From positions 7,731 through 71,730 of the forward strand of contig JAGGXI010000038.1 in assembly GCA_021163155.1 (NCBI GenBank): DNA of 64,000 nucleotides. Direction: 5' to 3'. The DNA comes from Candidatus Aerophobota bacterium (GTDB lineage: Bacteria > Aerophobota > Aerophobia > Aerophobales > JAGGXI01). The stretch's first letter is position 1. Every line of letters starts with the position of its first letter. The notes below the pieces were generated by a model. It was not told the DNA's origin, did no database searches, and saw only the letters and a list, made by a program, of their open reading frames with translations. This document shows, one piece after another, positions 41,590 to 64,000 of the stretch. The translations under genes and the position numbers were made by a program.

Positions 41590-41616
41590 GGGGGTCAGGT
41601 CTCAACATTTGACATT
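41590..41616 (+). repeat. GGGGTCAGGTCTCAACATTTGACATTT motif (left inverted copy flanking eamA)
   Basis: It is the reverse complement of 42842-42869. Related copies lie at 53949 and 56600. Confidence 0.7.
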
Positions 41617-42488: not shown

Positions 42489-42503
42489 TAGTATCTCCTC
42501 TGT

Positions 42504-42728: not shown

Positions 42729-42826
42729 TTTGAGATTTCTAGAAAAGTCAAAAATCTCTGATTTCGCAGATAAAAGTCCAAATTACACAGATCAAAGGAC
42801 TCTGGAGGTTTTTTTAGAAGCTTCTT
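42729..42826 (+). repeat. family-C repeat (tandem second copy, about 225 bp after the first)
   Basis: 55 bp are identical to 42504-42570. Confidence 0.8.
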
Positions 42827-42841
42827 ATTTTATAAAATGTT

Positions 42842-42869
42842 AAATGTTGAGACCTGACCTCTATTCTCT
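42842..42869 (-). repeat. GGTCAGGTCTCAACATTTAACATTT motif (right inverted copy flanking eamA)
   Basis: It is the reverse complement of 41590-41616. Confidence 0.7.
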
Positions 42870-46359: not shown

Positions 46360-46361
46360 AT

Positions 46362-46664: not shown

Positions 46665-47147
46665 TCACTTCTTTTTTTTTATGCCTTCTTTTATTATGAA
46701 AATAGGTAAGACTAAAAGAGAATTATAAAGAGAGGAAAGAAAAACAAGAAAAGTTAAATGAGTTCGTGAAAAAGAAGAGATGTGAAAAATTGAGGAAAAA
46801 GAAATAAGGAGAAATCCATTAAGAATAGTAGATAAGCACATAATAATGAGAAGAAGTATTAAATTCTCTTCATAAACTTTCTCTCTTATTTCCCCAACAA
46901 GAAAACCAACTATACACAAGGTAAATGCATTTACACCCCAAAGAGGAAAAAAGAGAACATCTTTTAAAATGCCTATTATAAAACCAGATATTACCCCTTG
47001 CCTCCATCCATTATACCAAGCCCATAAAACAAGTAAGATTAAAAAAAGGTCGGGGCTGCCCCTTTTAATTTGAAATCCTCCTATCAAAGTAATCTGGAGA
47101 ATAAGAATGACTAAAAATAAAATAATAAATATAATTGCTTTCTTCAT
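46665..47147 (-). CDS. mreD: rod shape-determining protein MreD
   Basis: A 160-aa polytopic protein directly downstream of mreC. Confidence 0.7.
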   Translation of the reverse strand: MKKAIIFIILFLVILILQITLIGGFQIKRGSPDLFLILLVLWAWYNGWRQGVISGFIIGILKDVLFFPLWGVNAFTLCIVGFLVGEIREKVYEENLILLLIIMCLSTILNGFLLISFSSIFHISSFSRTHLTFLVFLSSLYNSLLVLPIFIIKEGIKKKK

Positions 47148-47959
47148 TCTTCTATCTTTATAATGAATAACTCCTCTAATTTTCTAAAATCTACATAAGG
47201 AGTTACTTCTACATATTGGAATAATTGGTGAGGATTCTTCTTTATCAGAGAAATTTCTCCAACAAGAATCCCTTTAGGGAAAATTCCTCCTAATCCAGAG
47301 GTTATTATCTTATCTCCTACTTTAACGGATACTTTATTGGGCAGGTATATCAATTCACATTTTTCCTCCTCACCCTTACCTTGAAGGATAGCTATATCTC
47401 TAGTTTTTTCATCCCGAACCCCTACCTTACTTCTTTTATCAAGAATTGATAATATTTTAGCCTGATGAGGATAAATCTCAATTATTCTTCCTACTAACCC
47501 CTGAGCATTAACTACCACCATATTTTTCTTTACCCCTTCTTTACCACCCTTCCCAATAAAAATGGTATCAAAATAGCTAAAAGGAGAATAAGCTATAACT
47601 TCTACAGGTATAAGATTAAATGCTTGCCTCTTTTTAAACTCAAGCGTTCTCTTCAATTTATCATTATCGGAAAGGATATGGCGGTAATAATTTTCTTGCT
47701 GGAAAGTGAGCTTATTAACCTTCTCCTTAAGCATCTGATTTTCTTTTCTTAATTTTTTGGCTTCATAAATATTCCCTATAGACTCGGTAAGCTCTGTTTT
47801 GAAATTAAAGAAGCATCTCTGGAAAGATTCCACAAAGAAATAACTCCTCTCTTTCACTTCAATGGGTAGGTCTCTTTTATAGTTAGAAACTAATATTAAA
47901 ACAAAAGATATAAAAAGAAAACTAATTAAAAAAATTGTCTTTGAACCAATTTTTCCCAA
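47144..47959 (-). CDS. mreC: rod shape-determining protein MreC
   Basis: An N-terminal TM helix and coiled coil are followed by a C-terminal beta domain. It lies between mreB and mreD. Confidence 0.85.
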   Translation of the reverse strand: MGKIGSKTIFLISFLFISFVLILVSNYKRDLPIEVKERSYFFVESFQRCFFNFKTELTESIGNIYEAKKLRKENQMLKEKVNKLTFQQENYYRHILSDNDKLKRTLEFKKRQAFNLIPVEVIAYSPFSYFDTIFIGKGGKEGVKKNMVVVNAQGLVGRIIEIYPHQAKILSILDKRSKVGVRDEKTRDIAILQGKGEEEKCELIYLPNKVSVKVGDKIITSGLGGIFPKGILVGEISLIKKNPHQLFQYVEVTPYVDFRKLEELFIIKIEE

Positions 47960-47979
47960 TTCTTGCTCACTTTATTTAA

Positions 47980-48073
47980 ACTCAGATTCGAAAAAGTTAA
48001 AAATCTCTGATTTCGCAGATAAAAATCGAGATTACACAGATTGAGGCCTTTGGAGGTTTTTCAGAGGCCTCTA
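47980..48073 (+). repeat. family-C repeat in the mreB-mreC intergenic region
   Basis: 'aaatctctgatttcgcagataaaaatcgagattacacagattgaggcctttggaggtttttcagaggcctc'. Confidence 0.8.
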
Positions 48074-48103
48074 ATAAATTACCAAATCTGGATAAACATA
48101 ATT

Positions 48104-49138
48104 TCAATAAGGAGTTATTTCTACCGAGGATAAAATATCGGGGTTATCCAATAGCTTCCCTGTCCCTAAAGCTACTGAAAGAAGAGGGTCGGAAGCTAAT
48201 TTTACTGGAAGGTGTATTCTCTGATATAGATATTTATCAAAACCTTTAATACAGGATCCACCACCTGTAAGATATACTCCCCCCCGTCTTACATCTCCAG
48301 CAAGATCTGGAGGACACTTTTCTAAAACAGCTTCTACCATCTCACAAATTGCATTAATCACCGGCGAAAGAGCTTCTCCTATCTCCTCCGAATTTACTTC
48401 CATCTCTACAGGAAAGCCTGTGTTTAAATCTCTTCCATCTATTTTCATCTTCTCTTCCTTGGGAGGAGGATAAATACATCCTATCTCTATCTTTATTTTT
48501 TCCGCCATCTGTTCCCCGATAAGCAAAGCATGCTTTTCCTTTAAATAATGGATTATGGCCTCTGTCATCTCATCACCAGCTACTCGAATAGAATCGCTAA
48601 CTACTATACCATTCAAGGAGACTATTGTCGTTTCACTGGTTCCTCCCCCGATATCTACCACCATACTGCCTGACGGCTTAGATATAGGTAGATTTATTCC
48701 AATAACAGCGGCTACAGATTCAGCCACAAGGTGAACTCGTCGCGCTCCTGCAGCCATTCCCATATCCATTGCTGCTCTCTTCTCCACTTTAGTTGCACAA
48801 GAAGGAATACCAATTACAAGGCGAGGTCCAATTAAAACACGGTGAGGCAAAACATGGGAAATAAAATATTTAACCATCTTTTCTGTGATATCAAAATCAG
48901 CGATCACTCCATCCTGAAGAGGTTTAATAGCCAAAATATTTTGAGGAGTCTTGCCTATCATCTCCTTAGCTTCTTTTCCTATGCCTACAATTTCCCCATT
49001 CCCTTGACTAACAGCCAACACAGAAGGCATATTTAAAACAATTCCTTTCTTTTGAGCATAAATTAAAGTATTAGTAGTCCCTAAATCTATTCCCAAATTG
49101 TTTCCGAATATTCTAAAGCTAAAGATATCTTTAAGCAT
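48104..49138 (-). CDS. mreB: rod shape-determining protein MreB (actin-like ATPase)
   Basis: 'IDLGTTNT', 'VVDIGGGTSE' and 'LTGGG' motifs are present. Confidence 0.95.
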   Translation of the reverse strand: MLKDIFSFRIFGNNLGIDLGTTNTLIYAQKKGIVLNMPSVLAVSQGNGEIVGIGKEAKEMIGKTPQNILAIKPLQDGVIADFDITEKMVKYFISHVLPHRVLIGPRLVIGIPSCATKVEKRAAMDMGMAAGARRVHLVAESVAAVIGINLPISKPSGSMVVDIGGGTSETTIVSLNGIVVSDSIRVAGDEMTEAIIHYLKEKHALLIGEQMAEKIKIEIGCIYPPPKEEKMKIDGRDLNTGFPVEMEVNSEEIGEALSPVINAICEMVEAVLEKCPPDLAGDVRRGGVYLTGGGSCIKGFDKYLYQRIHLPVKLASDPLLSVALGTGKLLDNPDILSSVEITPY

Positions 49139-49248
49139 AATAGTCTCTCTTCTTCCTTACTATATTATATTATATCTGCATAGAAAGAGAAAGTCAAATT
49201 TGCAAAATTTGAAAATAGATATATAATGCTAAAAAAGAGGAGATTATA

Positions 49249-51111
49249 ATGATACTTCGTCAATTAAGAAACTCTGTCAAACCAATAGTATGGGCAATAA
49301 TTATAGGGTTTTCAGCTTCTCTTTTTTTTATGTACGGTCTCCACAGATCAGAAAGAGAAAAACCTATTGTTAAAGTTAATGGTGCCCCTATATCTTATAC
49401 AAACTTTGCACAAGCTTATCAAAATGCCTATGATAGTTATCAACAAAAGTATCAGGGAAATATAACTCCCCAAATAGAGAAGTATTTAAGATATCAGATA
49501 TTATCTCAGTTAGTAACTACAGAACTCATCTGGCAAGAAGTGAAAAAATCCAAGATAAATGTAAACGAGCAAGAATTAACGGAGGAGATAAAGAAGATAA
49601 TAAAAAATTTTCCTTCTCGAGAGGCATTTATAAGATATCTCAACTATAAACATATTCCTTACAATGACTTTAAACAGGAGGTTAAAAAGCAATTAGCCAT
49701 AAATAAACTTATCGAAAGAATTAAAGAGAGTGCCTCAATAACTGATGAAGAAATTAAAGACTACTGGCTAAAGGAAAATGAGAGGATAAAGGCTGAATAT
49801 ATAATCCTTAAAACAGAAAACTACGAAAAAGAGATAAATACTACTCAAAAAGAGATAAAAAAATATTATACAGAACATAAAGAAGAGTTTACCATTCCTG
49901 AAAAGGTGAGTGTAAACTATATTATTATAAACCCTGAGGATTTTAATAAAAAGATAAAAATCACAGAGGAAGTACTAAAAAAATATTACGATAGTCATTT
50001 AAAAGAATTTGAAGTTCCTGAAAAAAGGAGAGCCAGCCACATCTTGATAAGAATACCCTCTAATGGAGAGGGAAAAGAAGCAAAGGAAAAAATAGAAGAG
50101 ATAGAGGAAAAAATAAAGCAAGGCTCTAATTTTGCTCTCCTGGCTAAAAAATATTCTCAAGATAAAGCATCAGCTAAAGAGGGAGGAGACATAGGATTCG
50201 TTACTTCTAAAGAGATAGTCCCCTCTTTTAGTGAGGCTCTTTTCTCCTTGGAAAAAATAGGAGAGGTCAGTGAAGTTGTAAAAACGCCTTTTGGTTATCA
50301 CCTAATTAAGCTAACAGGTATAAAACCAGCTTACACCAAATCTTTTGAAAAAGTAAAAGGAGATATTAAAAAAAGATTATTAAAGGAAAAGAGCGAAGAA
50401 TTAGCTAAAAAAGAGGCAGAAAAAATCAAGAAAGAATTTAAAGATTACATTAAAAAATATCCAGATAATTTAAAAACTACTCCTCTTTTTGCTCGCACTG
50501 AATCATTTATTAAAGAATTAGGATGGGTTCCTCAATTCACTAAGGTAGCTTTTTCCCTTAAAAAAGGAGACATCAGTTCTCCTATAAAAACCTCTATGGG
50601 ATATTGCCTTCTTAAATTAAAAGAGAAAAACCCTTCTTATATTCCTGAGTTAAAAGAGATAACTGAAGAGGTAAAAAAAGCGGTAATCAAAAAGAAATCT
50701 ATGGAATTCGCCTATAAAAAAGCAGAACAAATAGTTAAAGAAGGAGAGGAAGGAAATTCTTTTTCTTCTCTTGCTCAAAAATTTAATTTGGAATATAAAA
50801 GCTTAAAATACCTTAAAAGAGGGGAGCAGATAGAAGGGATTAATAGCAATGAGGATAGGGAGAAGTTCCTCAACACCGCCTTTTCTCTGGGAAAGAGAAA
50901 AATAAGCAAGCCTTTACTCCTACAAAATAGCTATTATATAATAAAATTATCAGATAGAGACCCTCAGTGGGAGGAATTTCATAAAAAAGAAAAGGAAATT
51001 GCCAGGAATTTACTCTCCCAGAAAAAGAGAGAATATGTAAATACCTGGCTTGAGAAATTAAATAAAGAGGCAAAAATAGTAGATAATACCAAGCTATTCT
51101 TCCCCTCTTAA
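49249..51111 (+). CDS. ppiD: periplasmic chaperone/peptidyl-prolyl isomerase PpiD-like (SurA-N plus parvulin domain)
   Basis: An N-terminal TM helix and a parvulin domain ('SHILIR...GGDIGFV...FGYHLIKL'). Length is 620 aa. Confidence 0.75.
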   Translation: MILRQLRNSVKPIVWAIIIGFSASLFFMYGLHRSEREKPIVKVNGAPISYTNFAQAYQNAYDSYQQKYQGNITPQIEKYLRYQILSQLVTTELIWQEVKKSKINVNEQELTEEIKKIIKNFPSREAFIRYLNYKHIPYNDFKQEVKKQLAINKLIERIKESASITDEEIKDYWLKENERIKAEYIILKTENYEKEINTTQKEIKKYYTEHKEEFTIPEKVSVNYIIINPEDFNKKIKITEEVLKKYYDSHLKEFEVPEKRRASHILIRIPSNGEGKEAKEKIEEIEEKIKQGSNFALLAKKYSQDKASAKEGGDIGFVTSKEIVPSFSEALFSLEKIGEVSEVVKTPFGYHLIKLTGIKPAYTKSFEKVKGDIKKRLLKEKSEELAKKEAEKIKKEFKDYIKKYPDNLKTTPLFARTESFIKELGWVPQFTKVAFSLKKGDISSPIKTSMGYCLLKLKEKNPSYIPELKEITEEVKKAVIKKKSMEFAYKKAEQIVKEGEEGNSFSSLAQKFNLEYKSLKYLKRGEQIEGINSNEDREKFLNTAFSLGKRKISKPLLLQNSYYIIKLSDRDPQWEEFHKKEKEIARNLLSQKKREYVNTWLEKLNKEAKIVDNTKLFFPS

Positions 51112-51402
51112 TCGGGTGACAGCGCCTCTTTGTACTCTTAACTTTACCTTATCCTCTACTTCTATTTCTAAATAATTTTTCTTAACATTAGTAACAGTTC
51201 CATATATTCCCCCGGTGGTAATTATCTTATCTCCCTTCTTCAAACTTTCTACCATTTGTCTATGTTCTTTCTGTTTCTTCCTTTGAGGAAGGATGAGAAG
51301 AAAGTAAAAAATAACAAAGATAAGAACAAGAGGCATTAAAGATCCAATCATTCCTCCTGCTCCTCCTGTTTGCCCATTAGCAGCCCATGCAATAGCATTC
51401 AT
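51094..51402 (-). CDS. yajC: preprotein translocase subunit YajC
   Basis: A 102-aa protein with a single TM helix, upstream of tgt as in many bacteria. Confidence 0.8.
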   Translation of the reverse strand: MNAIAWAANGQTGGAGGMIGSLMPLVLIFVIFYFLLILPQRKKQKEHRQMVESLKKGDKIITTGGIYGTVTNVKKNYLEIEVEDKVKLRVQRGAVTRLRGEE

Positions 51403-51407
51403 TTCTT

Positions 51408-52529
<1,122 letters not shown>

Positions 52530-52618
52530 TTATTTTAGAATCAAGAAAACCCATTTTGTTCCCTTTAATCCTGCTTTTCCTTGACCGTATCAGGAAATTA
52601 TACCTATAATCTACTACT

Positions 52619-52660
52619 GAGGGTATTTCCCTGAAGAAGCCTTATAGGAGCTACCTTAAC
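52619..52660. repeat. partial family-A-associated motif 'gggtatttccctgaagaagccttatagga'
   Basis: It matches 7447-7480 ('gggtatcaagggattttccctgaaggagccttataag'). Confidence 0.5.
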
Positions 52661-52756
52661 GAGAAGACGAGCAGAAACAATTCAAAGCAGATATACAGCG
52701 ACGAAAGGGAATACCCAAAATCTTCTTGATATATAATATCAGGAATATAAAGGAAG

Positions 52757-53782
52757 TCAAATTATGAGCATTGCATCTCCGAAGGAGAGGAAACGATATT
52801 TTTCCTTTATTGCTTCCTTGTAAGCGGCAAGCAATTTTTCCTTACCCACAAAAGCAGATACTAATAGAATAAGTGAGGTCCCTGGCATATGAAAGTTGGT
52901 AATAAGGGAATCCACTATCTTAAATCTATATCCCGGATAAATGAACAGCTTTGTCCATCCCTCTCCCTCCTCAATTAAACCAGTAGATTTAGCCTGTGTT
53001 TCCAGAGCTCGAGTAGCACTGGTTCCTACAGTTACCACTCTTCTCGCTTCCCTAATAATCTTAGCTGCTTTAGCCTCAATTTTATAAAATTCCTCTGGAA
53101 TTTGATTCTCTTCCACTATTTCTTTATTTAAACGCTTAAAGCTGGCCCATCCGGTATGCAATGTCACCTCTACTATTTTCACCCCTTTATCTTTTATTTT
53201 TTGCAATAAAGAAGGGGTAAAATGGAGTCCTGCTGTGGGAGCAGCAATGGCTCCTCCCTCTTTAGCATAAACAGTTTGATATCTTTCTCTATCTTCGGGG
53301 CTGGGGCATCCTTCCCTTTTGATATAAGGAGGAAGAGGAACCTGACCAATCTTCGCTATAACTCTATTTAATTTGCTTGGAGGAGTAAATTTAACTACTG
53401 CCTTTGCTCCTTCACCCTTCTTTAATATATATGCTTTAAGTTCTGTCTCCGGGAAAAAAATTGAACTATCTTCTCTTATGCTCTTAGCCGGTTTCAGTAA
53501 ACATTCCCAAATATCTTCCTCTTTTTTCTTTAAAAGAAGAACTTCAGCTTTGCCTCCCGTAGTTTCTTTTTTTCCTTTCAATCGAGCAGGTATCACATAT
53601 GTATTGTTTAATACCAATACATCCCCTTCCTGGAAATAATGCAGAATCTCATAAAATCTTTTATGCTCTATTTCCCCCTTTTCTCTGTGAAGCACCAAAA
53701 GACGAGACTCATCCCTTTGGGGAGCTGGATATTGAGCAATTAATTCTCCTGGAAGCTGATAATAAAAATCTTTTAACCTCAA
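52757..53782 (-). CDS. queA: S-adenosylmethionine:tRNA ribosyltransferase-isomerase
   Basis: 'LPPYI' and 'TVGTSATR' motifs are present in a 341-aa product. Confidence 0.9.
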   Translation of the reverse strand: MRLKDFYYQLPGELIAQYPAPQRDESRLLVLHREKGEIEHKRFYEILHYFQEGDVLVLNNTYVIPARLKGKKETTGGKAEVLLLKKKEEDIWECLLKPAKSIREDSSIFFPETELKAYILKKGEGAKAVVKFTPPSKLNRVIAKIGQVPLPPYIKREGCPSPEDRERYQTVYAKEGGAIAAPTAGLHFTPSLLQKIKDKGVKIVEVTLHTGWASFKRLNKEIVEENQIPEEFYKIEAKAAKIIREARRVVTVGTSATRALETQAKSTGLIEEGEGWTKLFIYPGYRFKIVDSLITNFHMPGTSLILLVSAFVGKEKLLAAYKEAIKEKYRFLSFGDAMLII

Positions 53783-53948
53783 CTGATTTTCCTTTATTCT
53801 TTTCTTTTAAAATTACCAATAATTACTCATTGGTCAAGAAGATTTCTAGCTTTCCCCTCCATCGCTGTCCATTACGAGTAAATGGGTAAATGAGTTAATT
53901 GGACAAACTTTGTACTATTTTTTGTAGTTTCTTTACTTTTTCCTCATA

Positions 53949-53975
53949 TGGGTCAGGTCTTCAAACTTGACATAA
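53949..53975 (+). repeat. GGGTCAGGTCTTCAAACTTGACATAAA motif (left boundary of the accessory island) with an adjacent hairpin
   Basis: A direct copy lies at 56600. It is followed by the inverted repeat gtcttcaaacttgacataaat...atttatgtcgaagac. Confidence 0.65.
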
Positions 53976-54114
53976 ATATTAATTTATGGTAATGATAATT
54001 TATGTCGAAGACCATTAAGAATTTCCCATCCAGGCGCCCTTTATCATATCAGTACAAAGCATAAGGAATACAGTAGCCGCGGCAGACATCGACGTCACAA
54101 GAATTCCATCAAAA

Positions 54115-54714
54115 TTGGAAGCGCGAAGTGGACTTGGAAGCCGCGCTGAAGTTATACCAGCCATAGATAAACTTTTTGGCGAGTTATACAAAGACGCTCA
54201 AGAAAACGCACTTTGCATAATTGCGGAATGTTTAATAGCAGAAAGCCCACAATTGGCCGAAAGCGTACAAGAAATTCTTGGAAAAGACGGTTATCAATTC
54301 ATTGATGGTTCATTTGTTCCTGTTGGTTTACTAGATCAAAGAGAGGCCAAGTTCTTGCCTATAAGCTCAGCCACCGAGATTGCTAGAGCTACCTCTCGAT
54401 TAATTAATGGTGATTACAGCGGCGCAATAACATCAGCATGTGGTGCCGTCGATATCGTAATGCAGTAAATCTATAAAGAGCAAGGCCTGGGCGAAGCAGG
54501 TAAAGCCTCCTTTCAGGCTAAAGTGAATACTGCTGCTAAGCAATTACGCCTATTTGAAGCAATGGAAAGCGAATTTCGGAAAGTAGGCATGCCTGAAAAG
54601 GATACATCGGAATTAGTAAAGGAAATGAAAAGTGCCACTAACCATGCAGCACAGGCGTTACAAGTCTTGAGGCGTGCTATGGGAGACACCCATGGCATCT
54701 CTAAGATACAATAG
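54115..54714 (+). pseudogene. GC-rich ORF of unknown function interrupted by an in-frame TAA (54466-54468); the C-terminal segment carries a HEPN-like 'RAMGDTHG' (Rx5H) motif
   Basis: ORFs 54115..54468 and 54523..54714 are in the same frame and separated only by the stop. The frame is also open upstream to 54019 with no start codon there. Confidence 0.4.
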
Positions 54715-54958
54715 CCAGGGATTCTCTAATTCTTCTTTAGTCACAAAACGCCATTTACCGCTATCTTCCAAAACTTTTGTATTCTCATCCAGCAAAGAGT
54801 ATAGAACGATAGTCCTAAAAACACTTCCCAGTCTTCTTACCCACCATTTGTGAATAAAGTAAATCGGCGGTATTTTTCCTTGGCGTGGGCTTCCCGTTCC
54901 GCAATTTCGTTAACCTGTTCAATAGGGAAATCTATTTTTATAGGTCTTTGTTTCACTT

Positions 54959-55351
54959 TTATTCCTCTATTGCCTTTGCGACAATTTCATCTATAACTTT
55001 AATGAATTCCTCAGCTTTCTCAAGCCAGGTCTTGATATCTTCCTTGTTGAATTCAACAAAGTCTTCATAATCTCCCCTTTGCCTGAATTCAAACATTTTA
55101 TTGTAAAAATCTCCGAATTTTTCCCCAACAACACCTGCCTTTACAAATTCTCTATTAAATAAGCTCCTTATTCCACTGTGTTTTGAAGAATAAAGATCCT
55201 TTGTTAGAAGAAGTGCAACAGATTCATAAAAGATGGCATAATATATTCTGTTGACAGTGGCAAACAGTTTTGAATTATCAAACATTATCTTTGCTTCTTC
55301 AAAGGTCTCTTTGGCTCTCTCCCTCCTGTAGTTGATAATTTTCTCTTTCAT
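54959..55351 (-). CDS. HEPN-domain protein (toxin component of a HEPN/MNT pair)
   Basis: The 130-aa product has an 'RQRGDYEDF' Rx4-6-type motif region. Its start overlaps the MNT gene stop by 4 bp. Confidence 0.75.
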   Translation of the reverse strand: MKEKIINYRRERAKETFEEAKIMFDNSKLFATVNRIYYAIFYESVALLLTKDLYSSKHSGIRSLFNREFVKAGVVGEKFGDFYNKMFEFRQRGDYEDFVEFNKEDIKTWLEKAEEFIKVIDEIVAKAIEE

Positions 55352-55695
55352 TTAACAGGCACTCCTTCTTTGTCAATATTCCAGTGAATGGGCATAGCTT
55401 TTGCCAATGGTGATTTCCAGAAGTTGGTAGCTTCTATAAGGATTCCAAATACGACATTGTACTTTAACTCTATTCTGAAGCTCATACTGAAAATCTTTTC
55501 TCTTAAACTGTCATTGACATCACATTCAAGTAGAATTAATACATCAATATCCGATTCCTCATCAAAATCTCCTCTTACCTTAGAACCGTAAAGAATGACC
55601 CCAGCATCTGGGAATCTTTCCAGCACTCTTTTTTTTAACTCCTGTAAAGCTTTTTTCTCATTTTCTTTTAATTTCAACTCTTCTACATTCTTCAT
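55348..55695 (-). CDS. minimal nucleotidyltransferase (MNT, pol-beta superfamily; antitoxin/AMPylase component)
   Basis: 'YGSKVRGDFDEESDIDVLIL' matches the GSx9-13Dx[DE] motif. Confidence 0.85.
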   Translation of the reverse strand: MKNVEELKLKENEKKALQELKKRVLERFPDAGVILYGSKVRGDFDEESDIDVLILLECDVNDSLREKIFSMSFRIELKYNVVFGILIEATNFWKSPLAKAMPIHWNIDKEGVPVK

Positions 55696-56150
55696 TTTCT
55701 TACCTCAATCATCGGAACAAAGCATTCCATCAAACTTAATCCACCATGAAAATATATACTGTATTTTCCCGGTACAGGCCATATATATCGGGATTTCACA
55801 AGATAATAACCAGAAAAATCTACAACATAACCATCTTGCACCAGATGAGAAGCATCTGCTTGATTCATAGAGATGTATCTATTGCTGCCAAAAACATCCC
55901 TTAAAGCTCTCTTCTTGTTATCCGGAACTGGGAAAGCAAATCCAGCTTCTGAACGAATATACCCATGGTCAGATAGAATTATAATCTTGCTGGTTTTAAG
56001 TTTAGTTGCCAATTCCATCACGATTTTTTCTGTAGTTTCATGCATATTCTCAAGAGATGAGATTACAGTATGCCCTACCTGAATTTTGTCCAGCAAACAA
56101 TCCGGAAAATAAGACCAGATATATTTTTCCCTACCCGTAATCCTTATCAT
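55692..56150 (-). CDS. short alkaline-phosphatase-superfamily protein resembling the C-terminal part of a PglZ domain
   Basis: 'ILSDHGY' and the C-terminal 'HGGLSLMECFVPMIEV' fit the PglZ family. The protein is only 152 aa, bounded by a stop immediately upstream. Its start overlaps the MNT gene by 4 bp. Confidence 0.4.
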   Translation of the reverse strand: MIRITGREKYIWSYFPDCLLDKIQVGHTVISSLENMHETTEKIVMELATKLKTSKIIILSDHGYIRSEAGFAFPVPDNKKRALRDVFGSNRYISMNQADASHLVQDGYVVDFSGYYLVKSRYIWPVPGKYSIYFHGGLSLMECFVPMIEVRK

Positions 56151-56185
56151 TTAAATCAATTTTTATTTACTATTTTCATATTGTA

Positions 56186-56413
56186 TTATTTCTCCTCTGG
56201 AATATACACAAGTAACTCACCAACGGAGCAATTTAAAGCCTTGCAAAGTTTTTCGAGAACCTCGTAGGTTACCTGTTTTGCACCTGTGCCACCATTTTTC
56301 CCCATCTTGGAGAGAGCATTAATAGAAATACCTGTCCTCTTGCTTAACTGGGTGTAATTCAGGTCTCTCTCAGCTAAAAGTATCTTTAATCTATTTTTTA
56401 TCATTTTTTCCAT
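56186..56413 (-). CDS. XRE/Cro-C1-type HTH transcriptional regulator
   Basis: 'LSKRTGISINALSKM' forms the HTH. It is the first gene of the minus-strand operon. Confidence 0.8.
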   Translation of the reverse strand: MEKMIKNRLKILLAERDLNYTQLSKRTGISINALSKMGKNGGTGAKQVTYEVLEKLCKALNCSVGELLVYIPEEK

Positions 56414-56599
56414 CCCTAAGTAACTTTTTTATATTTAAAATTTGGATATTTACAATGAGAAATGTATAAAACCACTTGACAAGTATAAACGGATATGGCA
56501 AAATTACAATAGTAGATGTAAATAATTAACTTACAAAATGATTATATACACTAACTATTATAATCCAAATATTTCCTGAGTCAATATTTTCTTAGTATA

Positions 56600-56616
56600 G
56601 GGTCAGGTCTTCAAGA
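56600..56616 (+). repeat. GGTCAGGTCTTCAAGAG motif (right boundary of the accessory island)
   Basis: Direct copy of the motif at 53949. Confidence 0.6.
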
Positions 56617-58075
56617 GGCCTGTTCTCTTATTGAACTCTTTAATTAGTTTATCTATTTTACCAACTTGTTTATGAATATTACCCCAATAGTCTTCACAAT
56701 CATACCATTGAGCATTTAACTCATCCAATTCTTTACCCTGCTGTTCTATCCAGGTGTAGTATTTAAGGTTATGAATTCGTTTTTTATCATAATAAGTTAA
56801 CTCTTCCATATAATCAGTAGATAACCCAAGTAAATGTTGGTGATAGTCAACAGCAGCATCTATCTTGCCATATGAATTATTATATTCTTCTTCCATTTCT
56901 TTTAATCTTGATTTATAAAGCTCCATAGAATCTGTAAATACAGTCATAACTATATCATTCTTAGTTAATTCATAATACTTAGCAAACTTAATAGCCATTA
57001 TTACATTAGCCGCACTGGAAATACCTAATAAAGGCAACTGTTCAATTAATCTCTTAGAAACATTCATTTCTTTTAAATAATCTTTGCCAGCGGGTTCATT
57101 AAATACCCGCACCAGTCCCATGCTATCATTATCATCAACATCAATTATCATATCGGTATTCTTTACATTGTGAATCCAGGGTACGTGTTTGTCACCAATA
57201 CCTTCAATCCTATGAGCACCATAACCATTAGATAATAAAGTTGGACACTGCAGGGCTTCACCAACAACAATTTTACTGGTTGGATACAACTCTTTTAAGT
57301 AATCTCCGCATCCTAAAGTACCTGAAGAACCAGAAGTTAAAACAACTCCGGCATATTTATCATCTGGACCCATTACCTCTTTTAAAACTTCTTCCATAGC
57401 ATGACCGGTAACTTCATAATGCCAGAGATGATTACCAAATTCATCAAACTGGTTAAATACTACTACATTATCTCTTGTTTTTTTTAATTCCCAGGATTTG
57501 TCAAAAATCTCTTTTACGTTGCTTTCACTTCCAGGAGTAGCAATAACTTCTCCTGCCACTTTAGTTAGCCAGTCAAAGCGTTCTTGACTCATCCCTTCGG
57601 GTAAGATAGCAATTGATTCACAGGATAATAAATCAGCATCATAAGCACCGCCCCGACAATAATTACCTGTAGAAGGCCAAACTGCCTTATGAAAAGTAGG
57701 GTCAAATTGTCCAGTAATCAGTCTGGGTACTAAACAACCAAAGGTAGCTCCAACCTTATGAGAGCCGGTTGGAAACCATTTACCCACTAAAGCAATGATT
57801 TTAGCGTCAACTCCTGTAAGTTCTTTGGGTAATTCTATATAATTGACTCCACTATACAAACCACCATTTTTCACTGGTTCATTTTTCCAGGTAACCCTGA
57901 AAAGATTATATGAATTAATGTCCCATAACCCTATATTTTTAAGTTTATTTTTAATCCTATCAGGAACAAGTTCAGGATTCTCCATCTCCTCAAAAGTGGG
58001 AATGATAATATTCTTCTCTTTAGCTCTTTTTATTGTCCTTTCAAGTTGTTCTTCATTAATAGTTAAATCAATCAT
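56603..58075 (-). CDS. PLP-dependent enzyme, fold type II (tryptophan-synthase-beta/threonine-synthase-like) with a roughly 100-aa N-terminal extension
   Basis: 'FPTGSHKVGATFG' is the PLP-lysine motif (compare ThrC PTGSFKDR). Length is 490 aa. Confidence 0.6.
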   Translation of the reverse strand: MIDLTINEEQLERTIKRAKEKNIIIPTFEEMENPELVPDRIKNKLKNIGLWDINSYNLFRVTWKNEPVKNGGLYSGVNYIELPKELTGVDAKIIALVGKWFPTGSHKVGATFGCLVPRLITGQFDPTFHKAVWPSTGNYCRGGAYDADLLSCESIAILPEGMSQERFDWLTKVAGEVIATPGSESNVKEIFDKSWELKKTRDNVVVFNQFDEFGNHLWHYEVTGHAMEEVLKEVMGPDDKYAGVVLTSGSSGTLGCGDYLKELYPTSKIVVGEALQCPTLLSNGYGAHRIEGIGDKHVPWIHNVKNTDMIIDVDDNDSMGLVRVFNEPAGKDYLKEMNVSKRLIEQLPLLGISSAANVIMAIKFAKYYELTKNDIVMTVFTDSMELYKSRLKEMEEEYNNSYGKIDAAVDYHQHLLGLSTDYMEELTYYDKKRIHNLKYYTWIEQQGKELDELNAQWYDCEDYWGNIHKQVGKIDKLIKEFNKRTGLLKT

Positions 58076-58399
58076 TTTTCATACTCCTCATTTATTTTAA
58101 AAAGTCTCAAAGCCCTGATTATATGTTTCTCTTGAATTCGCTTCTATACTTTATTCATTCATTATTTTATAGCAAGACCTTCTTTTTTCTTACCGTTTAC
58201 TTTACTGTCTCCTTCAGATTTTAACTTTATTTTAATAAAAATCCAGTAGATTGACAACCAACTTTTATAGAAAATTCATCTTATTAGATTTTTAGAATAT
58301 TTAGAATATTTTGAAATCCGTAATATTTGCATTAACAACGATCCATATAAGAAGAGAAAGATTAATTTCAAAATCACAGATTCCACATTTAGGGTATGG

Positions 58400-58600
58400 T
58401 TACCTTTGTAGCATCTGAGTTTGCGCTACAAAGGACGGTAGCCGCAACCTTTACCCCGCTAAATAGTAGTAACATCTAATGGGGTTTAGGTTGTGCTGTT
58501 TTACGCAGGTGGTAGCCGCAACCTTTAGGTTGCGCAAAGAAGACCGTTACACAATAATGCAGGCTCTGAGCCTCGCGGCTACCATTTTTCCTGCAAAAGA
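58400..58600 (+). ncRNA. candidate structured 5' leader RNA or riboswitch upstream of gspE (GC-rich, nested hairpins, ends in a hairpin plus T-tract)
   Basis: - The 17-mer GGTAGCCGCAACCTTTA occurs twice, at 58439 and 58512.
- A hairpin cctttgtagc/gctacaaagg is present.
- A 9-bp outer stem ggtagccgc...gcggctacc is followed by 'atttttcc'.
- GC content is well above the local background. Confidence 0.35.
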
Positions 58601-58686
58601 TAGCTGACAAATGGTATTAAAGCTATTTACAAGCAAAAAATAGATAAACACAAGACTTATTTTTCTTAATTCTTAGTTTTAAATTA

Positions 58687-58783
58687 TTGAGATTTCTGAA
58701 AAAATCAGAAATCTCTGATTTCGTAGATAAAAATCGAGATTACACAGATTAGAGGCCTCTGAAGGTTTTTCAGAGATCTCTTA
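58687..58783 (+). repeat. family-C repeat immediately upstream of gspE
   Basis: 'gagatttctgaaaaaatcagaaatctctgatttcgtagataaaaatcgagattacacagattagaggcctctgaaggtttttcagagatctc'. Confidence 0.8.
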
Positions 58784-58837
58784 TTGTCAGGTTGACGAAA
58801 ACTTCTATTATAATATTATATAAAAGAAAGGGCAATC

Positions 58838-60556
58838 ATGGCAAAAATAGCGAGAGTAAGTCTTAGTGATATTCTGCTTAAAGAAGGATTCATTTCCGAA
58901 AAAGAGATTCAAAAAGCTGAAGAGTATCAAAAGAAACATAAAGGAAATCTTTCTGAAATATTTATTAAATTAAGAATGGTTACTGAGGATGAACTGGTAA
59001 GGGCACTAGCAGAACAGTTAAGTATCCCCCATATGAAACTCACCAATTATAAACTAGATCCTGAGATAATGAGTATGCTTCCAGAGAAGGTAATTAGAAA
59101 AAATAAAGTTGTCCCTTTATCTAGAACTGCTAATACTCTTACTGTGGCTACCGCTGACCCCCTTAATATTCTCCTTCTTGATAATCTTAGAGCAATGACA
59201 GGGTGCAATATACAAACTATTGTTTCCACAAACTCTGACATCGAGCAAGCCATCGGTGACTACTATTCAACAATGGCTTCAAAAGACCTTGAAAATTTAA
59301 TTAAACAATCCGAAAGGGATAAAGGAAAAATAGAACTAATCATAGAAAGAGAAATGGTAAATTTAGACGAGTTAAAAAAACAGGCTGAAGAAGCTCCTGT
59401 TATAAAAATAGTTAATCTTATCTTTTCTCGAGGTATAAAAGAGCGAGCCAGCGATATTCACTTAGAGCCCTTTGAGAAAAACTTACAGATAAGATATAGA
59501 ATCGATGGGATTCTATATACTGCATTTCTTCTTCCTAAAAAATTACAAAATGCCATAATCTCGAGGATAAAAATTCTGTCAGAAATGGATATTGCTGAGC
59601 ATAGACTCCCTCAAGACGGAAGATTTAGAATTAAAGCCTATAATAGAGACATTGACTTCCGCGCTTCTACCATTCCAACTCGATTTGGAGAAAAAGTTGT
59701 TCTTCGCCTTTTAGACAAGGCTCATCTTCAAGGATTAACTATCGATACATTAGGATTTGAAGAAAATGTCTTAAAAAAATACAAGAAAGCAATACATCAG
59801 CCCTATGGAATGATTATTTTAACCGGTCCTACTAGCTGTGGAAAATCTACCTCTCTTTATGCAGCCATCAGAGCTATAAATAGCTCTGATAAAAATATTC
59901 TTACTATTGAAGACCCTGTAGAATATGAATTAGAAGGTATTAATCAAGTCCAAATTCATGAAGAAATAGGGCTAACCTTTCCTCGAGCCCTTCGTTCTTT
60001 TCTCCGCCAAGATCCGGATATAATTATGGTTGGTGAGATGAGAGATACAGAAACAGCAAATATAGGAATACAAGCCTCTCTTACTGGCCACCTTCTCTTT
60101 ACCACTCTTCATACCAATAACGCTACTGGAGCTATAACCAGACTGATTAATATGGGAATAGAACCATTTCTTATTGCCGGAACTCTTAATTTTGTGGGAG
60201 CGCAAAGATTAATGAGAAAAGTATGCAAACACTGCCGTATTGCTTATAAACCCTCCAAAAAACTTATTGAAGAATTAAAAATAGAGGATAAAATAAACAA
60301 AGAGACTCTATTCTATAAAGCAAAAGGATGTCCTTTATGTAATAATACCGGTTACCAGAGGAGAATGGCTGTTATGGAAGCATTGGAAATAGATGATGAT
60401 ATAAAAGAGTTAATTCTCGCTAAAACTTCCGATGCTGAATTAAAAAAAGCTGCCATTTCCAAAGGAATGGTTAGCTTAAAAGAGAATGCCTTATCTAAAG
60501 TGATAAAAGGGGAGACTACCATTGAAGAGTTAGCCAGAGTAACAGGAACATTGTAG
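58838..60556 (+). CDS. gspE: type II secretion / type IV pilus assembly ATPase (GspE/PilB) with an N-terminal MshEN-like domain
   Basis: Walker A 'GPTSCGKST', Asp box, Walker B and a tetracysteine motif ('CKHC...CPLC') are present. The N-terminal 'LSDILLKEGFISEKEIQKAEEYQ' and 'LSEIFIKLRMVTEDELVRALAEQ' repeats resemble MshEN. Confidence 0.9.
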   Translation: MAKIARVSLSDILLKEGFISEKEIQKAEEYQKKHKGNLSEIFIKLRMVTEDELVRALAEQLSIPHMKLTNYKLDPEIMSMLPEKVIRKNKVVPLSRTANTLTVATADPLNILLLDNLRAMTGCNIQTIVSTNSDIEQAIGDYYSTMASKDLENLIKQSERDKGKIELIIEREMVNLDELKKQAEEAPVIKIVNLIFSRGIKERASDIHLEPFEKNLQIRYRIDGILYTAFLLPKKLQNAIISRIKILSEMDIAEHRLPQDGRFRIKAYNRDIDFRASTIPTRFGEKVVLRLLDKAHLQGLTIDTLGFEENVLKKYKKAIHQPYGMIILTGPTSCGKSTSLYAAIRAINSSDKNILTIEDPVEYELEGINQVQIHEEIGLTFPRALRSFLRQDPDIIMVGEMRDTETANIGIQASLTGHLLFTTLHTNNATGAITRLINMGIEPFLIAGTLNFVGAQRLMRKVCKHCRIAYKPSKKLIEELKIEDKINKETLFYKAKGCPLCNNTGYQRRMAVMEALEIDDDIKELILAKTSDAELKKAAISKGMVSLKENALSKVIKGETTIEELARVTGTL

Positions 60557-60590
60557 TCAGAGGCCCAGGCACTTCAAAAGGAGAAATAAT

Positions 60591-61823
60591 ATGGCTATTT
60601 ATAGTTATATAGCTATAGACCATAATGGGAAAAGAAAAAAGGAAATGATTGATGCAGAGAACGAAAGAACAGTAATCGCTCAACTGAGAATGCAAAAATT
60701 AATCCCTCTTTCTATAAAAAAGAGAAACAAACTTTCCGTTTCTCTCACTAAAAAATCGAGTTCTGGAATGGCGATCTTTAAACCTCGTATAAAAGGGAAA
60801 GATATAATTATTTTTTTCCGCCAATTTGCAACCCTTATTAATGCTGGGCTTCCCATGGTCCAAGCACTTGATATTATGATTAACCAGACCCAGAACACAA
60901 CTTTAAAAACCATAGCAGGGGAGGTAAAAAAAGATGTAGAGGCAGGAATATCCTTATCTGAAGCCTTATCTAAACATTCTAAAATTTTTTCTTCTCTTTC
61001 TCAAAATATGATAAAGGCAGGAGAAATGGGAGGAGTTATCGATGTAGTTCTTCTCCGATTAGCTGATTATTTAGAATATACAGAAAGTATAAAACGACGA
61101 ATGAGCTCTGCTATGCGTTATCCTATTTTCGTTCTCTTTATGGCTGGTGGACTTATTGGGATTCTCCTCTTTATTGTTCTTCCTAAAATGGAGGTTCTTT
61201 TTAAAGAATCCCTTCATACTAAACTTCCCGCACTTACTCAATTTATACTTACATTATCAAATGTAGCCAAGCAAAAATTTTACTTTATTTTCCTTATTGT
61301 TGGTATTATTTTACTTTTCTATTATTTTATTAAAAAATCAGTGAGAGGAAGCTATATTTTGGATAAAATCAAGCTAAAGCTTCCTGTGATAGGAAAATTA
61401 TTTCATGAAATTGCCTTATCGAGATTTGCGAGAACACTGGCTACTTTATCTGATAGTGGAGTCCCTATACTCGATTCTATAGAAATGACAGGAAAAATGA
61501 GTGAGAATAAATTCATCGAAAAAGCAACTATGGAGGCGAAATCCTCTTTGAAGGAAGGAGAAACATTATCTGCTCCCTTACGGAAATACACAGTATTTCC
61601 CCCTATGGTAACAAGTATGATTTCTGTAGGTGAAAAGACGGGAGCGCTTGATGAGATGCTTAATAAGATTGCCGATTTTTACGACCGAGAAGTAGAGGTA
61701 ATGGTGAATTCTTTAGCCAGTTTAATAGAACCACTCTTAATAATCTTTTTAGGAGCAACAGTGGGAATAGTAGTAGTAGCTATGTATCTTCCTTATTTTA
61801 CTATGTTTCAACACATTGGCTAA
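60591..61823 (+). CDS. gspF: type II secretion system F / type IV pilus platform protein (GspF/PilC)
   Basis: The 410-aa product has two T2SSF repeats and 3 TM helices. Confidence 0.9.
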   Translation: MAIYSYIAIDHNGKRKKEMIDAENERTVIAQLRMQKLIPLSIKKRNKLSVSLTKKSSSGMAIFKPRIKGKDIIIFFRQFATLINAGLPMVQALDIMINQTQNTTLKTIAGEVKKDVEAGISLSEALSKHSKIFSSLSQNMIKAGEMGGVIDVVLLRLADYLEYTESIKRRMSSAMRYPIFVLFMAGGLIGILLFIVLPKMEVLFKESLHTKLPALTQFILTLSNVAKQKFYFIFLIVGIILLFYYFIKKSVRGSYILDKIKLKLPVIGKLFHEIALSRFARTLATLSDSGVPILDSIEMTGKMSENKFIEKATMEAKSSLKEGETLSAPLRKYTVFPPMVTSMISVGEKTGALDEMLNKIADFYDREVEVMVNSLASLIEPLLIIFLGATVGIVVVAMYLPYFTMFQHIG

Positions 61824-64000
61824 CACAGAGGAGAAAAAGATAGAGAAGAAAACTTCTTATATCGATTTATCCCTTAAGATCGGACTTATAGAATTATTCT
61901 TTCTTACCCCTCTTATTTTTTATGCCTGGGCAACCACATTCACCGTCACTAAAAATACGGTAGCAGAAATTATTATTCTTACCCTCACCGCTTTATGGGT
62001 AATTAACCTTATAGAGGGAAAAAATTACCCTTCTCTTAAATTTCCCTTAAGTTTACCTATACTCTCTTTTTTGGTAGTTATCTTGATCTCTTTATTCCAA
62101 ACTCATACTTATTATACCTCCTTTTTAGACCTTGCTCGATGGAGTAGCTATATCCTTGTTTACTTTATTATCACTTCTTGTTTAAGGAGAAAAAAATGGA
62201 TAAAGGTACTGCTCATCGCTGTTCTCTCGGCCTCTTTCATCGCCTCATCTTATGCTATTTTTCAGTTTTACGGAATCGATTTCCCTTTCTGGAAGAAGCT
62301 CTCCGGAAGAATGCGTCTTTTCTCTACCTTTGGCAACCCAAATTATCTCTCTGGGTATTTAGCCGCCTGCCTTCCCATTGCTTTCACTTTTTTTTGTTTA
62401 TCTAAAAAAAGATTATTTTTAGGGATTATTATAGTCATTCTTTATACAGGAGTATTAATAACCAATATTGGAGGATGCATCGCTCTCTTTGGAGCAGCCA
62501 TTTTTATATTATTAACTCTTCTGATTTATAAGGAAAAAGTTTTTTTTAAAGATAACCACCTCTCTTTATTGCTGCTTATTCTTGCTTTTACAATAGTTAC
62601 CGCAATTTACTCCACTCATAATCCTTTAAATCCCAAAGGGAAAAATGTGATTGCAGAAGGGACAGCTTATACCAACTTTGGATATTCTTCTACCCAACAG
62701 CGTTTTTTAATCTGGCTCTCTACATATGAAATGATTAAAGAGCATCCCTTTCTTGGTTCTGGGGTAGGAACCTTTAGAATTCATTACCCCGCTGCCCAGG
62801 GAAAAATTCTCTCCCAAGAAAAAAATAGAAAATATATCCCCCAGGCAAATAAATCTATAAATGCTCACAACGATTATCTACATATATGGGTAGAAACAGG
62901 AATTATAGGCCTTCTCTGTTTTATCTGGATTATAGCTATCTTTTACAAAAAAACCTTCTTTTACCTTAAAAAAGTAAAAAAGGAAGAAAAATTTTTTTTA
63001 ATTGGCTTATCTGGGGGAGGAGTAGCTATCCTTATCCATGCTTTATTTAGCTTTCCCTTTCATATTATACAAAATGGTCTTCTTTTTTGGCTTTTCCTTT
63101 CTCTATCCACCTTAATAGGGGAGAAGAAGATTAAAGAGGAAGAAGAGGGGGGGAATAAGGAAAATAAGGATGGAGGAAAATTTATTATTTTAAAAAGAGC
63201 CATCCAAATAAGCGTAGTTCTTTTAGCCATTTCTTTAGGAATTTTAAGAGTAAAGCTCTTTATCGCTGATACTCACATAAAGATTGCAGAAATGATGATG
63301 AAGGAAAAAGCTTATCCCGCGGCGGCTTCTGAGTTAACCAAATCTTTAAAATTTGATAACCATAACGGATTAGCCTTTGCCAATCTGGGAGAGTGTTATG
63401 GATATTTAAAATTATACGATAAATCTTTTTACGCCCTAAAGAGAGCGGAAGTAAACTGGATATATCCTTATCTTTATAACAATTTAGGATGCTCTTATAT
63501 AGGTATGAAAAAATGGGATGAGGCTGAGAAAATGTTTAAAAAAAATATCTCGCTTTTCCCCAATTCTGCTAACGCTTATTTTAATTTGGGTAATCTCTTT
63601 CTTCTTAAGGCAAAGGAGGATATTCTTAATGAAAATACGAAACTGGCAAAAAAAAATTTAAATAAAGCTTTTATTCTTTATGAGCAGGGTAAGATTTTTA
63701 AGCATACTTTTCCTTTACCTTTAAGACTCGCTCAGGCTTATAATAAAGTAGGGGAAGGAGACTTAAAAGAGAAAGCTCCCTCACCTTTCTCTTTTTTTAC
63801 CCCTAAATCTTCTCCTTTCCTTGACATTCTTATTCCCTTAATAAAATGCGGTGGAGAAGGATGTTTTAGATTATTTTTTTATCTTCCCCCGCAGGAAAAC
63901 TATACTCCAAAAGCAAAGATAAATATAGAAATAGAGGATGAGGAAAAAAAATTGGTTGAAAATTTCACCCTAGAGAAAGAAATATTCCCTTTTAATAATA
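61816..64000 (+). CDS. O-antigen-ligase-like (Wzy_C) polytopic membrane protein fused to C-terminal TPR repeats; partial, continuing beyond the window
   Basis: A single frame is open from about 61816 to the window end. 'NAHNDYLHIWVETGIIGLL' is an O-antigen ligase motif and is followed by TPR-like repeats. It is missing from the ORF track because there is no stop codon. The start (TTG at 61816) is uncertain. Confidence 0.65.
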   Translation, partial: MANTEEKKIEKKTSYIDLSLKIGLIELFFLTPLIFYAWATTFTVTKNTVAEIIILTLTALWVINLIEGKNYPSLKFPLSLPILSFLVVILISLFQTHTYYTSFLDLARWSSYILVYFIITSCLRRKKWIKVLLIAVLSASFIASSYAIFQFYGIDFPFWKKLSGRMRLFSTFGNPNYLSGYLAACLPIAFTFFCLSKKRLFLGIIIVILYTGVLITNIGGCIALFGAAIFILLTLLIYKEKVFFKDNHLSLLLLILAFTIVTAIYSTHNPLNPKGKNVIAEGTAYTNFGYSSTQQRFLIWLSTYEMIKEHPFLGSGVGTFRIHYPAAQGKILSQEKNRKYIPQANKSINAHNDYLHIWVETGIIGLLCFIWIIAIFYKKTFFYLKKVKKEEKFFLIGLSGGGVAILIHALFSFPFHIIQNGLLFWLFLSLSTLIGEKKIKEEEEGGNKENKDGGKFIILKRAIQISVVLLAISLGILRVKLFIADTHIKIAEMMMKEKAYPAAASELTKSLKFDNHNGLAFANLGECYGYLKLYDKSFYALKRAEVNWIYPYLYNNLGCSYIGMKKWDEAEKMFKKNISLFPNSANAYFNLGNLFLLKAKEDILNENTKLAKKNLNKAFILYEQGKIFKHTFPLPLRLAQAYNKVGEGDLKEKAPSPFSFFTPKSSPFLDILIPLIKCGGEGCFRLFFYLPPQENYTPKAKINIEIEDEEKKLVENFTLEKEIFPFNN

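Follow-up and report, generated by a model that had tools for sequence, protein, structure and literature searches.

A lineage-specific accessory segment between queA and a PLP-dependent enzyme gene of an Aerophobota bacterium and the dispersed hairpin repeat at its borders

We analyzed a 64,000-nucleotide stretch of a Candidatus Aerophobota bacterium genome (assembly GCA_021163155.1, contig JAGGXI010000038.1, positions 7,731 to 71,730), hereafter the window, and in it a 2.65-kb segment located between queA and the gene of a pyridoxal phosphate (PLP)-dependent enzyme. The segment is lineage specific because the PLP gene adjoins queA in sister lineages. On balance, it is probably a now immobile remnant of mostly antiphage accessory DNA that entered a hot spot, the PLP–queA spacer, by recombination between copies of a dispersed hairpin repeat, here called R1, and then decayed. 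The 15-bp direct repeats at the borders of the segment are the identical outer tips of two same-orientation copies of R1, a repeat that is similar to miniature inverted-repeat transposable elements (MITEs) and to the hairpin-forming doublets of repetitive extragenic palindromic (REP) sequences known as REPINs.

Presence, borders, and content of the segment

Source annotations assign the queA protein and its nearest relatives to Candidatus Aerophobetes. Four sister Aerophobetes lineages (L290, L291, L293, and L294) were compared. Their queA genes have identities of 90–91% in amino acids (aa) and 88–92% in nucleotides (nt) and the lineages are roughly equidistant. In all four, the PLP gene is directly next to queA, with a spacer of 98 bp in L290 and L291, ∼100 bp in L294, and 49 bp in L293, and the segment is absent. 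The segment is an insertion between the two genes, as had been proposed from the sequence alone, and the alternative offered at that time, that relatives all carry the same segment, does not hold. Eleven contigs of the same population are 99.8–100% identical to the window and the segment is present in all that reach its site.

The direct repeats that the sequence-only reading had described are confirmed as an exact 15-mer, GGGTCAGGTCTTCAA, on the + strand at both borders (table 1). Allowing up to two mismatches, these are the only copies of GGGTCAGGTCTTCAA in the window, where 0.06 are expected. A pair of 15-mers is not rare in itself because the window has 23 distinct exact direct-repeat pairs of at least 15 nt, six of which are no more than 5 kb apart. 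The weight of the GGGTCAGGTCTTCAA pair therefore rests on the position of both copies at junctions and on their shared repeat family. The box and inverted repeat said to follow the left copy are likewise present, as TTGACA at 53967 and as imperfect 16-nt arms (53969–53984 and 53991–54006) with 81% complementarity. Also in agreement, no recombinase gene is present among the open reading frames (ORFs) of the segment, all of which are accounted for, or among the neighboring yajC, tgt, queA, PLP, type II secretion system E and F (T2SS-E/F), Wzy-like, and sufBD/sufC genes. No integrase is encoded in ∼20 kb around the site and no tRNA gene is within positions 45000–64000.

The content of the PLP–queA spacer differs among lineages. 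In L290, L291, and L294, it holds two inverted copies of the motif in the form of a 76-bp R1 palindrome that starts 4 nt after the PLP stop codon. In L293, there is no trace of the motif at this spacer. Where relatives have R1, a single element touches both sides, one of its tips being at the queA flank and the other at the PLP stop codon. In the window, the queA side is instead occupied by a ∼100-bp copy, R1b, and the PLP side by the stump of another copy, R1a. R1b is the resident element because the sequence outside its tip (GACCC ATATGAGGAAAAAG) and that outside the relatives' palindrome (GACCC CATATAAAAAGGAG in L294) are orthologous. The interior of R1b continues as in a copy located near sufC (...ATTAAGAATTTCC.ATCCAGG.GCC.TTTATCATAT) up to an abrupt switch, across a shared TAT, to a fragment of an Abi_C-family gene. 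Only 15 nt of R1a are left, in the same orientation as R1b and with the interior side of R1 pointing into the PLP gene. The switch from R1a to the PLP gene is also abrupt and occurs at CAA, which is the TTG leucine codon common to all lineages. Both switches thus have 3 nt of microhomology, and the genes located between the two copies likewise break off abruptly. The PLP gene on the − strand ends in ...CTC TTG AAG ACC TGA CCC, or ...L-L-K-T-stop, with the stop codon at 56603–56605; the last two codons (K-T) and the stop codon are supplied by the R1 tip. The protein ends in ...LL in L290 and L294 and in ...LLEER in L293. It is 490 aa long in the window and 488 aa long in L290, and the L293 protein, likewise of 490 aa, has a different tail.

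The 15-mers do not represent a target-site duplication: on the left, the 15-mer ends a ∼100-bp element orthologous to the palindrome of relatives, and on the right, it belongs to a second, truncated copy. The proposal of an insertion with target or attachment (att) site duplication is therefore correct with regard to the insertion, the direct repeats, and the lack of an integrase but not with regard to the duplication, and the motif is not specific to the boundaries. The prediction that an empty site between queA and the PLP gene would hold the motif once is not borne out; relatives have two inverted copies or none. The predicted empty-site junction, CCTCTTGAAGACCTGACCCATAT, has no match in metagenome contigs. 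The predicted circle junction, ATGTCAAGT-TTGAAGACCTGACCC-TATACTAAG, has no match in viral contigs. In one contig (Ga0186713_158507 of sample 3300016457, hereafter L307), position 1 coincides with the first base of the PLP-side 15-mer, at 56614 of the window. This suggests a branch in the assembly graph that resulted from a single-nucleotide polymorphism (SNP) between strains or from an alternative junction.

The cargo of the segment is a patchwork of defense-gene stubs around one intact regulator and one intact pair of minimal nucleotidyltransferase (MNT) and HEPN genes (table 1). The Abi_C fragment next to R1b is 96.5% identical in nucleotides to ∼nt 107–755 of intact 843-nt genes in L296–L298, and the intact genes of this family in other metagenome contigs follow a DUF262/GmrSD_N gene. 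Convergent with the fragment is the 5′ stub of a DUF1156/HmaB-like DNA adenine methylase gene, which matches Pfam DUF1156 (27.9 bits; cut-off of 24) and the N terminus of PADLOC HmaB (positions 10–65 of 967). The PglZ-domain ORF is a 5′-truncated gene because full-length ∼300-aa relatives match at residues ∼150–300; it aligns to positions 590–725 of 855 of the PADLOC PglZ profile. The end of the MNT gene overlaps the start of the HEPN gene by 4 nt. A predicted promoter (56584–56557) starts ∼16 nt inside the right junction and would drive an operon of four ORFs (XRE, PglZ domain, MNT, and HEPN). All eight contigs (8/8) with the exact HEPN protein have the same gene context, and BLAST searches of plasmids and phages with the segment gave no match.

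The segment had also been described as richer in GC than queA and tgt. This does not hold for the segment as a whole: GC content is 0.366 in the segment versus 0.386 in each of queA and tgt, and 0.357 in the window. In the comparison of GC and tetranucleotide composition, only the Abi_C fragment (649 bp) deviates, with a GC content of 0.439, which ranks among the highest 2% of 650-bp windows, and a tetranucleotide distance of 0.535 versus a 95th percentile of 0.444. It is the sole compositionally foreign piece. The part from the XRE gene to the DUF1156 stub (54700–56599) is host-like, with a tetranucleotide distance of 0.225 versus a background mean of 0.229.

The dispersed repeat R1

R1 ends in the 15-mer, and this tip, GGTCAGGTCT, is invariant in all eight aligned copies. 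In ∼70 kb of this genome, R1 is found at three loci (the segment, a sufC-proximal locus, and a locus with an EamA-family transporter gene) and all copies are intergenic. At all three loci, ends of R1 coincide with presence/absence breakpoints. Over 99 bp (53951–54049), R1b shares 89.9% identity with the sufC-proximal copy, and it is degenerate, with a fold energy of −20 kcal/mol (z of about −2). In L290, L291, and L294, R1 is a 76-bp perfect palindrome with 27-bp arms (GGGTCAGGTCTTCAAACTTCACATAAG - 22 nt - CTTATGTGAAGTTTGAAGACCTGACCC) that folds at −51.6 kcal/mol (z of −10.9). We considered and rejected strong purifying selection on the palindrome, as L290 and L294 differ at 2 of its 76 nt, proportionally no fewer than the 7 of 203 in the adjacent 3′ end of the PLP gene.

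The sufC-proximal copy is 245 bp in length, has inverted GGTCAGGTCTT ends, and is ∼1.9 kb past the end of the window (L299 15275–15521). Upstream of sufC, synteny between the window lineage and L290 stops exactly at the tip of R1. Beyond it, L290 has yebC whereas the region in the window lineage (L299 15275–19105, from about position 65865 in window coordinates) has, after R1, ∼800 bp of very AT-rich noncoding DNA, other repeats, a CN-hydrolase gene, and split fragments of a dihydrodipicolinate synthase (DHDPS) gene. At the third locus, two R1-like arms in inverted orientation bound a 1.27-kb unit (41592–42862) that consists of an EamA-family transporter gene (41619–42488, − strand) and two copies of another ∼60–100-bp repeat. 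This unit is absent from the relative L304, in which mtrB and metG are adjacent with a spacer of 242 bp. The exact EamA protein is found in one context only. The caution that the motif could be a ubiquitous promoter element unrelated to boundaries is partly borne out: the motif is present at two or more other loci, but there it is again at the edges of variable DNA.

No flanks that match as a target-site duplication would are present at the R1 copies of L290, L294, sufC, or EamA. In Rfam, R1 has only sub-threshold matches to generic miRNA hairpins, and the literature on the motif and on mobile elements of Aerophobetes yielded nothing relevant. The 15-mer has at least 120 matches in viral contigs, which we attribute to chance since their flanks show no extension of the match; longer R1 patterns that include flanks have no match in these contigs.

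Origin of the segment

We infer a history in which recombination preceded decay. Incoming DNA, which could have been a circle from another R1-bounded region, an R1-flanked piece, or another replicon, would have carried its own copy of R1. A Campbell-type single crossover with the resident R1, either by homology over 76–245 bp or by an R1-specific enzyme acting in trans, would have produced an R1-cargo-R1 arrangement in direct orientation. Deletions at microhomologies would later have trimmed R1a to a stump next to the PLP gene and taken away the inner half of R1b along with much of the cargo. The reading frame of the PLP gene would have survived this because the R1 tip happens to supply Lys-Thr-stop. 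HEPN-MNT pairs are toxin–antitoxin systems, and the intact pair may keep the remnant from being lost.

Several points weigh against this history. There is no direct observation of the recombination step, and no donor molecule, intact R1a, or intermediate state was found. Several subsequent deletions have to be assumed, and a short-core site-specific event is indistinguishable from homologous recombination followed by deletion because only 15 bp of R1a are left. The ancestral state of the spacer is ambiguous because L293 lacks R1 there and the four lineages are roughly equidistant. R1 itself is described from the three loci in ∼70 kb of this genome and from ∼60 kb of relatives, and no transposase, REP-associated tyrosine transposase (RAYT), or recombinase is linked to it in the 64-kb window or in the related loci examined.

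The borders have the topology expected of a circular integrative element. A tyrosine or serine recombinase would have joined its 15-bp attP core, TTGAAGACCTGACCC, to the identical core in the 3′ end of the PLP gene, and the integrase and most of the cargo would have been deleted later. The PLP side would be attL (B-core-P′, 56600–56614), the queA side would be attR with a hairpin-containing P arm (P-core-B′, 53950–53964), and copies of R1 elsewhere would be att scars or secondary sites of elements in that family. The fit is exact in that the cores are in direct orientation and the core overlaps the 3′ end of a gene and restores its stop codon. A near-consensus promoter is just inside attL and the cargo is typical of mobile defense and toxin–antitoxin material. 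The start of L307 at the first base of the PLP-side core is as expected for a second path in the assembly graph, but a SNP in the Leu codon before it (CTC vs. CTT) would explain this start equally well. We nevertheless consider this explanation unlikely. The missing integrase, the lack of a single-core attB in relatives, and the lack of matches to the empty and circle junctions all count against it, and the core is not junction specific as in integrase islands: the same tip recurs at the sufC and EamA loci and, unlike att sites, it does so as inverted pairs around the 245-bp element and the EamA gene. A similarity on the island side, TAAGAAAAT, located next to the PLP-side core and one core of the sufC locus, was tried as a conserved P′ arm and rejected because it is not significant (score of 22 vs. 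a shuffle mean of 26.9).

The inverted pairs are in keeping with transposition, in which R1 arms are terminal inverted repeats for a transposase encoded elsewhere and the island is the cargo of an R1-bounded nonautonomous unit that was later rearranged. Inverted GGTCAGGTCT... ends are present at the 76-bp, 245-bp, and 1.27-kb EamA units, copies are dispersed in intergenic DNA, and the EamA unit is absent from the otherwise conserved mtrB–metG spacer of L304. However, the tips at the island are in direct rather than inverted orientation, none of the copies has a recognizable target-site duplication, and no transposase is seen in the window or related loci. The single context of the exact EamA protein and the absence of the motif with its flanks from viral contigs and the literature searched also speak against transposition, which we regard as improbable.

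Exchange through the flanks would not involve the repeat at all. The island would have been swapped in by homologous recombination through the PLP and queA flanks, as in minimal mobile elements of Neisseria, and the solo 15-mer would be debris of a resident repeat. Across the spacer (L290 9700–10200), L290 and L294 diverge by 3.4% in the 3′ end of the PLP gene and the palindrome but by 13.5% in the 5′ end of queA, a jump that indicates a homologous-recombination breakpoint between lineages. In addition, neighboring spacers hold different cassettes in different lineages (queA–tgt in L293 and mreD–gatC in L290) and exact 15-mers are not rare in the window. But both island junctions fall, to the base, on the same R1 tip, and such tips are also located at two further presence/absence breakpoints. 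A specific 15-mer would be present at a given junction with a chance of ∼1e-4. We regard an incidental repeat as quite improbable.

A more active role of R1 can also be imagined. R1 hairpins could be dedicated recombination sites of a trans-acting cassette-capture system in Aerophobetes, in which the 15-bp tip is the crossover core and the hairpin is a protein-binding arm. Its action would be to insert single genes such as EamA, or defense modules, next to the stop codons of core genes and to stack them there, by a logic like that of integron attC sites or Xer-dependent modules but with unrelated sequences. No evidence favors this over a passive role of R1 as portable homology, and we find it highly doubtful. 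Two other rearrangements were rejected. If the solo tip and the degenerate inner arm had been the ends of an inversion, reversing it would rebuild a full palindrome, but the sufC copy shows the same arm-to-interior continuity, which is therefore native to the long form of R1. For an island inserted into, and splitting, one long R1, the orientation of the right tip is wrong.

Neighboring spacers, known systems, and significance

Features of the segment, its flanks, and related repeats are listed in table 1.

Table 1. Features in the window (positions count from its first letter)
Feature	Position	Strand	Remarks
R1-like arm GGGTCAGGTCTCAACATTTGACAT	41592..41615	+	3 nt past the EamA stop codon
Inverted partner R1-like arm	42838..42862	−	With the arm at 41592–41615, bounds the 1.27-kb EamA-transporter insertion
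queA, conserved left flank	52757..53782	−	Pfam Queuosine_synth, E 7.6e-126
Left 15-mer, outer tip of truncated R1 copy R1b	53950..53964	+	Exact match; in register with other R1 tips
R1b, ∼100-bp left copy	53950..54052	+	TTGACA box; degenerate hairpin arms ∼53956–53977 and 53998–54014
Abi_C-family internal fragment	54047..54695	+	5′ and 3′ ends both missing; in-frame stop 54466–54468; weak Pfam Abi_C match
DUF1156/HmaB-like DNA adenine methylase 5′ stub, ∼88 codons, frameshifted	54696..54958	−	Directly downstream of HEPN
HEPN-domain protein, 130 aa, intact, putative toxin of the MNT-HEPN pair	54959..55351	−	Pfam HEPN E 1.1e-18, profile 3–116/117
MNT, 115 aa, intact	55348..55695	−	Pfam NTP_transf_2 E 1.2e-12; PADLOC PDC-S09 E 1.4e-16
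PglZ-domain gene, 3′ half, 152 codons left	55692..56150	−	5′ half deleted; Pfam PglZ below cut-off
XRE/Cro-type helix-turn-helix regulator, 75 aa, intact	56186..56413	−	Pfam HTH_26 E 5.4e-19, full profile length
AT-rich leader, GC 0.226	56414..56599	−	Near-consensus promoter TTGACT-16-TATAAT, 56584–56557
Right 15-mer, solo tip of second R1 copy R1a	56600..56614	+	Truncated at CAA microhomology with the PLP gene end
PLP-dependent enzyme gene, 490 aa, conserved right flank	56603..58075	−	Pfam PALP; adjoins queA in relatives
Copies of families R2, R3, R4	58223–58451, 7713–7872; 58687–58785, 47990–48075, 42730–42813, 42506–42566; 53833–53892, 7589–7647		

Other intergenic spacers near the segment also vary. 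At least three further families of short interspersed repeats (R2, R3, and R4) are present in intergenic spacers of the window, among them the spacer of 760 bp that precedes the PLP gene and, upstream of queA, an extra ∼140 bp that is absent from relatives. R2 repeats (58430–58600 of the window and L299 16090–16170) have a GC-rich long-range stem, GGTAGCCGC...GCGGCTACC, followed by a run of T. The stem resembles the 3′ end of a structured RNA or a terminator and has no Rfam match at the gathering score. One gene away from the segment, queA and tgt are adjacent in the window and in L290, but in L293 (metagenome-assembled genome GCA_034659655.1, 2608–5833) they are separated by a 440-aa methylase-like gene and a 420-aa gene of no known kind, making this spacer another cassette-like hot spot. 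In the L290/L291 lineage, mreD and gatC, which adjoin each other in the window lineage, are separated by a GH130 gene and two genes of no known kind (L290 16863–20361). Between gcpE and pyrG, the window lineage has a DUF6506 gene (L312 7994–8311) versus an MNT-like nucleotidyltransferase gene and a 48-aa ORF in L304 (2225–2947).

The PLP gene itself seems to have been widely transferred because its homologs, with 65–81% identity in Atribacterota, Halanaerobiales, Synergistota, Chloroflexota, Thermotogota, and others, sit in unrelated neighborhoods. In these genome contigs, queA is not nearby and the homologs are uninformative for synteny. A scan of metagenome contigs with the queA protein was dominated by low-complexity peptide patterns and the best match was 53%.

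Among known systems, R1 behaves like a MITE or a REPIN and the island like a decayed genomic islet at a hot spot. R1 has terminal inverted repeats on a short noncoding unit, as in MITEs, and is an extragenic inverted-doublet hairpin, as in REPINs. Like REPINs, REP elements, and MITEs such as the Correia elements of Neisseria, it is short (76–245 bp), extragenic, and dispersed (over three loci in ∼70 kb), its two inverted arms form a long hairpin, it is often located just past a stop codon, and it marks sites of rearrangement. R1 shares a promoter-like TTGACA box with Correia elements but these duplicate TA, and R1 has no target duplication at the copies examined. REPINs are mobilized by RAYT transposases whereas R1 has no RAYT or parent insertion sequence in the window or loci examined, and its arms have no internal REP-type palindrome. 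No Rfam family or published motif is related to R1 in sequence.

Neither R1 nor the island has the defining features of an integron cassette, an integrase-bearing island, or a bacteriophage exclusion (BREX) system. The island resembles cis-mobilizable elements (CIMEs), the att-flanked elements of streptococci that lack an integrase, and decayed islands at 3′ ends of genes. It shares with these the direct repeats, the missing integrase, the accessory cargo, and a conserved gene whose 3′ end is overlapped and completed by one of the repeats. In contrast to CIMEs, its repeat is the tip of a dispersed element rather than a unique att core, its empty sites do not have one copy, and no cognate integrase-bearing element is known. 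The order of short core, cargo, and full hairpin site ending in the same core is shared with integron cassettes and attC sites, and toxin–antitoxin cargo is common in chromosomal integrons, as in the island. However, R1 has no R″ or R′ boxes (RYYYAAC/GTTRRRY), the base of its stem is GGGTCAGG/CCTGACCC, its stem in L290 is perfect without extrahelical bases, and there is no array of sites. No IntI integrase or attI is present among called genes nearby.

With minimal mobile elements of Neisseria and hot spots of defense islands, the spacer shares conserved flanks with alternative contents (empty, hairpin, or island) and a cargo of defense and toxin–antitoxin genes. The mosaic pattern of divergence is also shared with minimal mobile elements, but the junctions of the island are at the tip of a repeat rather than inside flanking genes. 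As in type VII HEPN-MNT modules, the MNT gene is upstream of and overlaps the HEPN gene, and both proteins have Pfam domains over the expected lengths. A difference is that this predicted pair shares its operon with a gene for an XRE regulator and with a truncated PglZ-domain gene. With regard to BREX, the segment encodes only the 152-aa C-terminal half of a ∼300-aa PglZ-domain protein and no other BREX genes.

The island is a routine example of accessory and defense DNA that gathers and rots at an intergenic hot spot, here in a poorly known, uncultured phylum. It also illustrates a trap for calling islands by eye or by software: direct repeats at the edges of a segment can be tips of a dispersed hairpin repeat and neither att sites nor a target duplication. 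R1 is a family of hairpin repeats without an earlier report and its ends are located at three independent presence/absence breakpoints within 70 kb. If R1 is an active substrate of recombination, it would provide a handle on gene flux in Aerophobetes.

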